Counted from the stretch's first letter, positions 18,279 through 18,708 are shown. The stretch: DNA of 64,000 nucleotides from Colwellia polaris (GCA_047617785.1 JBLGBK010000003.1:22853-86852), one strand, 5' to 3'. Numbers and translations: made by a program. The notes: generated from the letters alone by a model not told the origin.

Positions 18279-18353
18279 GGGTTCGTGGTCTAGCTTGGTT
18301 ATGACACCTCCTTGACGTGGAGGAGATCCCCAGTTCAAATCTGGGCGAACCCA
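18279..18353 (+). tRNA. tRNA-Val(GAC)
   Basis: GGGTTCG/CGAACCC acceptor; CCTCC-TTGACGT-GGAGG anticodon arm; CCCAG-TTCAAAT-CTGGG T arm; CCA not encoded. Confidence 0.96.
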
Positions 18354-18363
18354 CTACGCATTT

Positions 18364-18527
18364 GGGAAAGTAGCTCAGGGGTTAGAGCGCTGCGCTCATA
18401 ACAACTTTTATGAGCGATGAGGGAGCAGGCGATTTCTGGATAGCCGGCTTTCCGATGATTAAAAACTCTTCCAGAATCATGTTTGTGAGAAACGCAGAGG
18501 TCCCGGGTTCGATTCCCGGCTTTCCCA
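18364..18527 (+). tRNA. tRNA with CAU anticodon (probably elongator Met; Ile2 not excluded), intron 18401-18491
   Basis: GGGAAAG/CTTTCCC acceptor; CTGCG-CTCATA|A-CGCAG anticodon arm; canonical BHB at 37/38 (CTCA/TGAG helix, TAA and AAA bulges); lacks initiator A1:U72; 10 nt downstream of tRNA-Val. Confidence 0.93.
18401..18491 (+). ncRNA. tRNA intron, candidate box C/D-like guide RNA for Cm34
   Basis: TTATGAGCG (18408-18416) is the reverse complement of the anticodon arm CGCTCATAA and is followed by D-like ATGA; C-like CCGATGA at 18452-18458. Confidence 0.6.
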
Positions 18528-18708
18528 TATAGTTTTGACTTAATTAGATTTTATCGTAGCCATCATCTTTTTTTTTGTGTCTAGATAGAAGTAAATTTCC
18601 CTGAGCTAGATGAAGATATGTTCTAGCTGGTTTAATTTGGTTTTTGTACCAGGTTTTTCCCTCTCTGATAGGGGAACATTAAAATGCATGTATTTAGAAT
18701 AAGTTGAT

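Follow-up and report, generated by a model that had tools for sequence, protein, structure and literature searches.

Archaeal tRNA introns that double as modification guides have their stock example in the intron of pre-tRNA-Trp, a box C/D guide RNA in Pyrococcus (sR50) and in Haloferax volcanii (Clouet d'Orval 2001 and Singh 2004, as cited in the sections of PMC4033218, PMC7994747, PMC4090602 and PMC11408192 drawn on here). In those sections it serves as the example in 2014 and again in 2024, and one review calls it 'a unique example'. The tRNA-Trp intron lies at the 37/38 site, directs methylation of the ribose at position 34 in the tRNA that hosts it and competes with the bulge-helix-bulge splice motif, all of which the tRNA-Met intron described here appears to share; it is, however, a complete C/D RNA whose two guides serve C34 and U39, whereas the tRNA-Met intron has one kink-turn and one guide. 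Two of these reviews (PMC4033218, PMC7994747) state in the same sections that Cm34 of archaeal elongator tRNA-Met is itself C/D-guided, and PMC4033218 adds that haloarchaea use sR-tMet for it, in agreement with an initial annotation of this DNA. The target of sR-tMet in Haloferax volcanii, as these sections describe it, is the one proposed here, Cm34 of elongator tRNA-Met, likewise in a halophile; sR-tMet is a stand-alone RNA, whereas here the guide lies within the intron. Joardar, writing in 2011, reportedly found sR-tMet to be the product of a separate gene that acts in trans on the intron-containing precursor. Cm34 of human elongator tRNA-Met is said to be guided by SNORD97 and SCARNA97, a finding attributed to Vitali and Kiss in 2019: the same nucleotide of the same tRNA and again a box C/D RNP, but eukaryotic, trans-acting and built on canonical snoRNAs. 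Separate dual-guide C/D sRNAs likewise guide wobble ribose methylation in several tRNAs, but they are not intron-borne half modules.

The nearest relative is the tRNA-Met intron of Nanoarchaeum equitans, a stable and abundant RNA of 66 nt (Randau 2012, Genome Biol 13:R63, PMC3491384). It has a consensus box D, a GC hairpin and a box C that departs from consensus by a single change, and it is described there as 'potentially guiding RNA methylation'. The main text of that paper names no target and does not use the word 'anticodon'; its supplements might name one. It was the only account of a tRNA-Met intron guide found in our search of the literature. The suspicion in the initial annotation that such introns had a precedent in Nanoarchaeum was justified, as the N. 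equitans intron has the same module: an elongator tRNA-Met with a 37/38 intron, in which an antisense element, a D box, a short hairpin and GAUGA follow one another (TATGAGC-t-CTGA-cccgaaaggg-GATGA in our locus L069, with C34 at D+5). The design is thus already known from N. equitans, and for the window alone our findings are confirmatory and not new in kind. The two introns differ in their D-type box, CUGA in N. equitans and AUGA here, where the C' box is changed to match, in having no similarity outside the module, and in the loop-to-tail complementarity that is added here. The peculiarities of the present locus are its AUGA/AUGAUUA box pair, this loop-to-tail complementarity and a genome whose Nop5 lacks the fibrillarin-binding domain.

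In the window, the 64,000-nt stretch of DNA analysed, the Rfam tRNA model detected a tRNA(CAU) at 18364-18527 (56.5 bits), in which 93 nt are inserted downstream of the anticodon. With introns allowed, ARAGORN called a tRNA-Met(cat) with a 91-nt intron, the length given in the initial annotation; at its default settings the program overlooks the gene. The genome (787 kb in 22 contigs, 96.55% complete) has 32 tRNAs by two methods, two of which carry a CAU anticodon. Because the other one (C1:8739-8815) is initiator-like, with A1:U72 and a GGG/CCC anticodon stem, because the AUA codon is covered by a tRNA-Ile(UAU) (C8:40626-40749, L153) with a canonical 51-nt intron, and because TiaS had no match in the 96.55%-complete genome under a search whose control was positive in four archaea, we assign the gene to elongator tRNA-Met. 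AUA is seemingly read by the UAU anticodon and not through agmatidine. A TmcA/Nat10-type acetyltransferase domain was not found in the same 96.55%-complete genome either, so that agmatidine and acetylation, the rival modifications of C34, are unlikely and were set aside. The gene starts ten bases downstream of a tRNA-Val(GAC) (18279-18353), a gap short enough that the two are probably co-transcribed, and is followed at around 18570-18578 by a terminator-like run of nine T residues. The features of the gene and its intron are collected in Table 1.

Table 1. Features of the tRNA-Met gene and its intron, in window coordinates. A1 is an alignment of 34 tRNA-Met and tRNA-Lys modules.
Feature	Position	Strand	Basis or detail
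Exon 1, elongator tRNA-Met(CAU), positions 1-37	18364..18400	+	Rfam, ARAGORN, G1:C72 acceptor
BHB 5' half	18395..18404	+	CTCA (18395-98) of 4-bp helix; 3-nt bulge 18399-18401 with 5' splice site; CAA (18402-04) of outer helix
Anticodon CAT	18397-18399	+	C34 = 18397
Intron, 91 nt, canonical 37/38 site	18401..18491	+	Sequence reading, ARAGORN, comparison with relatives
Guide TTATGAGCG	18408..18416	+	Exact reverse complement of tRNA positions 30-38
D'-type box AUGA	18417..18420	+	T, G, A invariant in A1
Hairpin, canonical (C) stem of the putative kink-turn	18421..18453	+	GGGAG (18421-25)/TTTCC (18449-53), inner GGC/GCC, apical loop
Apical-loop heptamer TTCTGGA	18434..18440	+	Complementary to 18470-18476
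C'-type box GATGATTA	18454..18461	+	A, T, G, A invariant in A1; RUGAUGA register = AUGAUUA (18455-61)
TCCAGAA, partner of apical loop, possible pseudoknot	18470..18476	+	Loop complement
BHB 3' half	18483..18492	+	TTG (18483-85); TGAG (18486-89); 3-nt bulge 18490-18492 with 3' splice site
Exon 2, tRNA-Met, positions 38-73	18492..18527	+	Rfam tRNA model

The guide is complementary to CGCTCATAA (18393-18401), which comprises tRNA positions 30-37 and the first intron base. Guide bases 18408-18415 pair with tRNA positions 31-38 and G18416 with C30, and G18412, the fifth base upstream of the ATGA box, stands opposite C34. The spliced tRNA retains the same 9-mer target since intron and exon 2 both begin with A. 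Both of the corresponding statements of the initial annotation, that the complementarity is perfect in precursor and spliced forms and that ATGA follows directly with the fifth upstream base facing C34, were exact on re-reading and recounting. The duplex, at 8-9 bp, is short against the usual 10-12. When the intron was subjected to 200,000 mononucleotide shuffles, 39 yielded a 7-nt guide core followed by one free base and NTGA.

We used BLAST to compare the gene with 60 relatives, which returned 30 loci, and cut out the 26 introns for which both exons lay within the locus (L022, L026, L027 and L030 were left out). All 26 contained the core T-[A/G]-TGAG-[C/T]-N-[A/C]TGA, with C34 opposite the fifth base and 7-9 contiguous pairs to the anticodon loop that start at the second base before the box. 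The introns were 65 to 262 nt long and could not be aligned beyond the module. A-to-G changes in the guide fall opposite U36, where they are kept as a G-U pair; the base adjoining the box is G, A or T, its pairing being dispensable as in genuine guides. The box is ATGA in 24 introns and CTGA in two, and the CUGA form is that of family f3, N. equitans and others. In the order as a whole, the pattern GCTCATA-N3-30-TRTGAGYNMTGA was matched once each in 47 of 70 genomes, including 24 of the 28 that are at least 90% complete, with a single match to a reversed-pattern control among the same 70. A scan of 185,579 species' genomes extended this distribution: of the 118 matches listed, at least 19 come from archaeal tRNA-Met genes that have an intron laid out in the same way, with Nanoarchaeum equitans, Aenigmatarchaeota and a Methanosarcinales MAG as distant carriers, and most of the remaining matches listed are chance matches in bacteria. 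The central proposal of the initial annotation, an intron-borne C/D-type guide aimed at its own C34 by the D+5 rule and to be sought in an alignment of orthologous introns, has therefore held up, with guide, box and register kept in 26 of 26 orthologues and in distant archaea including N. equitans. One contig filed as an Oligoflexales bacterium MAG (L052) has an archaeal-type, intron-bearing tRNA-Met with the module; it is probably archaeal and was placed in the wrong bin.

A second copy of the module was found outside the window, in the tRNA-Lys(UUU) gene of the same genome (C6:47817-47963; L152:101-247), whose 72-nt intron has canonical boxes and reads GTTAAAAGCA-CTGA-GCCACG...CGTGGC-GATGACGA. 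Here the guide GTTAAAAGCA matches GCTTTTAA(C) in the anticodon loop of the same tRNA, which places U34 at D'+5. Among 37 box-stem-box matches genome-wide, an 8-nt target in cis occurred only in the Met and Lys introns. Relatives yielded 30 tRNA-Lys loci, 29 of which were extracted; five have no intron, and of the 24 that do, 14 carry the module in register and ten do not, one of these ten being a CUU tRNA. The carriers belong mostly to families f3 and f4 and to the genome's own genus. With these, the D'+5 register is preserved in 40 of 40 Met and Lys modules. Nothing argues more strongly for a function of the antisense element, in our view, than the way in which the guide tracks the anticodon of its host; our literature search found no earlier description of a tRNA-Lys intron guide. 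The module was not found in the other introns of the genome (Ile, Asn, Gly and Thr). A relaxed scan of the genome for stand-alone box-stem-box elements gave 73 candidates, of which, besides tRNA-Lys, only two had a 9-nt match to rRNA or tRNA, both probably by chance. A strict pattern for canonical dual-guide C/D sRNAs gave none in the genome, which accordingly offers no independent sign of a C/D system at work. As to the other introns, the gene that ARAGORN labels tRNA-Thr(agt) with an odd intron (L154, C1:15615-15741) is, by eye, a tRNA-Asn(GUU) with a 53-nt canonical 37/38 intron lacking the guide module.

The hairpin between the two boxes adjoins both of them, with no spacer, for which reason a standard kink-turn is its natural reading. 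The initial annotation had recognized this hairpin and paired it as GGGAGC/GCTTTC; the hairpin stands, and its register is best moved by one base to that of Table 1. It had likewise taken CCGATGA as the C-like box, in place of which we prefer (G)AUGAUUA, beginning with G18454. Across 34 distinct Met and Lys stems the box-adjacent pair is formed in all 34 and the next positions in 33, 32, 28 and 25, through many pair types. In alignment A1, scored on the five box-proximal pairs, 97.9% of 142 cells are paired and 62 cells have changed on both sides; these values are inflated for pairs 1-3, since the rows had been pre-selected for at least three abutting pairs, and pairs 4-5 and the counts over the 34 stems are free of this bias. 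Covariation of the stem in A1 was 0.795 compared with 0.187 in shuffles (none of 500 reached 0.795), and slid controls were 30-62% paired. Internal C'/D' motifs ordinarily have the D' box upstream of the C' box, with a helix closing the two, so that circularization is not required. The suggestion that the D-before-C order would suit a circularized intron is therefore unneeded: a covarying stem that adjoins both boxes closes the kink-turn without a circle, and we dropped a circular RNA as a requirement for the box order.

The putative kink-turn has, in sequence, each of the expected elements: a stem, G/A-A-U, GA opposite GA, and a stem. Following kink-turn pairing rules, we would place G-A-U (18454-56) in the 3-nt loop, G18457 and A18458 in tandem sheared pairs with A18420 and G18419, U18459 opposite U18418, and U18460 in a pair with A18417. 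The C' box AUGAUUA is one change (G to U) from RUGAUGA, and this change faces the C-to-A change in AUGA. All 26 ATGA modules (24 Met and 2 Lys) have GATGATT or AATGATT, and CTGA modules have C, A or CG at the corresponding C' place; in the register used here, 4b/4n of the CUGA-type modules would be C opposite C. The repeated GAUGAU also permits another register, used in the initial annotation, in which the sheared pairs fall on the first GA, and the main text on N. equitans draws its boxes in that way (PMC3491384). Compared with a canonical dual-guide RNA, the internal D'/C' pair with tandem GA/GA is present and the terminal kink-turn of C (RUGAUGA) and D (CUGA) at the RNA ends is absent. No second C/D box pair was found anywhere in the intron (18401-18491), in line with the single pair seen in the initial annotation; GTGA at 18485-88, a candidate box D, was discarded as part of the splice-site helix. 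The intron overlaps no Rfam C/D family, even at E values up to 10, and permissive snoRNA-like Rfam matches downstream of the tRNA (DdR8 at 18529-18605, E=5; snoZ247 at 18603-18698, E=6) are weak and were taken as chance.

The anticodon bases are claimed by two folds. In the splice motif, CTCA pairs with TGAG and CAA with TTG to form the bulge-helix-bulge, and the nine defining pairs (anticodon stem and 4-bp helix) form in 37 of 40 module-bearing pre-tRNAs, this one included. The unconstrained minimum-energy fold of the precursor instead contains the guide:target hairpin, at a predicted -55.7 kcal/mol, compared with -45.9 to -49.9 kcal/mol when the splice motif is forced; these energies are nearest-neighbour estimates at 37 °C for RNA free of proteins and tertiary structure. 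By the same estimates the guide fold is favoured in every one of the 40 module-bearing precursors, Met and Lys (median -5.5, range -0.6 to -15.6 kcal/mol), and the guide:target duplex formed in trans is predicted at -13.1 kcal/mol. An ATGATT/AATCAT hairpin in the minimum-energy fold, which would bury the C' box, was rejected as it is absent from relatives.

The genome encodes fibrillarin (236 bits), Nop5 (163 bits) and L7Ae (92 bits), all above Pfam cut-offs, together with EndA and RtcB. The three C/D proteins for which the initial annotation proposed to search are thus present as genes, with Nop5 in a form that lacks the N-terminal fibrillarin-docking domain. Nop5 (L002:1387-2151; C3:5732-6493, upstream of the window) is a protein of 254 aa whose Nop domain spans residues 39-246. 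Its alignment to S. solfataricus Nop5 is confined to residues 121-374 of the latter, from which we conclude that the docking domain of around 120 aa is missing. The short form is the rule in family f1: of the 35 other genomes with a match, 34 have a Nop5 open frame of 247-284 aa and one (G028) has 384 aa, as against 314-362 aa in most f3 and f4 genomes. A split-off N-domain was considered and rejected: the open reading frame upstream of Nop5 (L002:981-1394) had no significant Pfam or PDB match, and the N-domain of f3 Nop5 used as a query had no match in the genome. The Pfam NOP5NT model is uninformative for archaea, as none of the control genomes scored above its cut-off. The fibrillarin gene starts at the Nop5 stop codon, downstream of Nop5 and translationally coupled to it. 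The RtcB profile was matched in two pieces (1-105 and 47-426) lying around 1.2 kb apart within a single 971-aa open frame (C1:93712-96417), which suggests an intein or other large insertion.

Taken together, these sequence comparisons show that the module is a real, conserved feature, and we think it probable that it is a minimal, intron-borne C'/D' module with a single guide, its most likely role being to direct Cm34. The 8-9-nt antisense element lies directly upstream of AUGA, and AUGA and (G)AUGAUUA, clamped by the helix, would form a kink-turn (18417-18461) that L7Ae may bind, after which Nop5 and fibrillarin would assemble. The guide would pair with its own anticodon loop and the ribose of C34 would be 2'-O-methylated. 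The particle may assemble on the nascent precursor and methylate N34 in cis, the RNA then refolding to the bulge-helix-bulge to be spliced by EndA and RtcB. In this scheme methylation would precede splicing, since the same anticodon bases are needed for the guide:target hairpin and for the splice fold. It is equally compatible with the sequence that the excised intron acts in trans on other tRNA-Met molecules, given that the 9-mer target survives splicing and that the initiator tRNA has the same loop. Counting against a Cm34 guide are the presence of only one kink-turn, the shortness of the duplex, the loss of the docking domain from Nop5, the want of a match to any Rfam C/D family, the failure of the strict pattern to find canonical dual-guide sRNAs in the genome and the C opposite C that our register implies for CUGA-type modules. 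Archaeal C/D RNPs are most active in methylation when a C/D and a C'/D' motif are both present.

The single kink-turn also fits a reading in which no methyl group is transferred and the kink-turn, bound by L7Ae with or without Nop5, covers the anticodon, holding the precursor in a fold that can be neither spliced nor decoded and so acting as a folding chaperone, a splicing timer or a quality gate. The greater predicted stability of the guide:target fold in all 40 precursors would suit such a role, and the Nop5 of family f1, lacking its fibrillarin-docking domain, recalls Prp31, a protein that binds a kink-turn complex with no methyltransferase involved. A cover for the anticodon, however, would not need an exact D'+5 register, yet this register is kept in every one of the 40 Met and Lys modules, including those from f3 and f4 genomes whose Nop5 is full-length; the base adjoining the box is unpaired or variable, as in true guides, and fibrillarin has been retained, starting at the Nop5 stop codon. 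For these reasons we consider a purely masking role unlikely. That the complementarity is a relic or a chance inverted repeat, for instance a duplicated anticodon arm with no function, has nothing in its favour beyond the shortness of the elements, and it is very hard to reconcile with the 39 hits in 200,000 shuffles, with a module conserved across the order in introns whose flanking sequence is not, with the covariation of the stem and with a second instance that fits a different anticodon, that of tRNA-Lys; we regard it as highly improbable.

The timing of action is a separate matter. The module might act only after splicing, as an excised intron, linear or circularized by RtcB, that guides in trans on tRNA-Met and possibly on the initiator; this is a variant of the guide explanation and does not contradict it. 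Splicing leaves the 9-mer target unchanged, the CTCATAA loop recurs in the initiator tRNA, where G31 precedes it, and the predicted energy of the trans duplex is favourable to it. The N. equitans intron accumulates as a stable RNA according to the main text of PMC3491384, and reviews state that action in trans was demonstrated for guidance by the tRNA-Trp intron. Set against this, 3-30 nt separate guide and target in cis and the predicted ground state contains their hairpin, so that pairing in cis should win kinetically, and no feature of the sequence demands a circle. An exclusively post-splicing role therefore seems to us improbable, and we retain methylation in cis on the precursor as the preferred order of events.

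The module is a conserved, portable element of tRNA-Met introns across DPANN and other archaea and of tRNA-Lys(UUU) introns and, if it is a guide, a stripped-down version of the idea embodied in tRNA-Trp, with one kink-turn and one guide. In that case it offers a concrete reason for the upkeep of long introns in tiny genomes, assigns a target to the stable intron RNA of N. equitans, and poses the question of how a half-size guide particle works, notably where Nop5 has lost its fibrillarin-binding domain. A bolder suggestion, which we put forward only tentatively and with more doubt than belief, is that in the nanohaloarchaeal family the module works with a Nop5 lacking the fibrillarin-docking domain, either because fibrillarin has a new way of joining a half particle with one kink-turn, providing a methylate-then-splice checkpoint in cis, or as a pure anticodon mask or splicing timer in the manner of Prp31. 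The checkpoint would follow from the guide:target fold being the predicted ground state, which must be undone before the splice motif can form. Either way, a plug-in module re-aimed by the anticodon of its host (C34 in Met, U34 in Lys) would then be a general and so far unrecognized function of long archaeal tRNA introns.

The apical loop of the hairpin has a further partner within the intron, the TTCTGGA heptamer being complementary to TCCAGAA, 11 nt past the C' box. The TTCTGG/CCAGAA core recurs, within loop-to-tail complements of 7-9 nt, in 10 of 26 Met introns, and in one of the loci (L009) the strands are exchanged, with TCCAGAA in the loop and TTCTGGA in the tail. This recurrence and the strand exchange argue for a real, pseudoknot-like contact.
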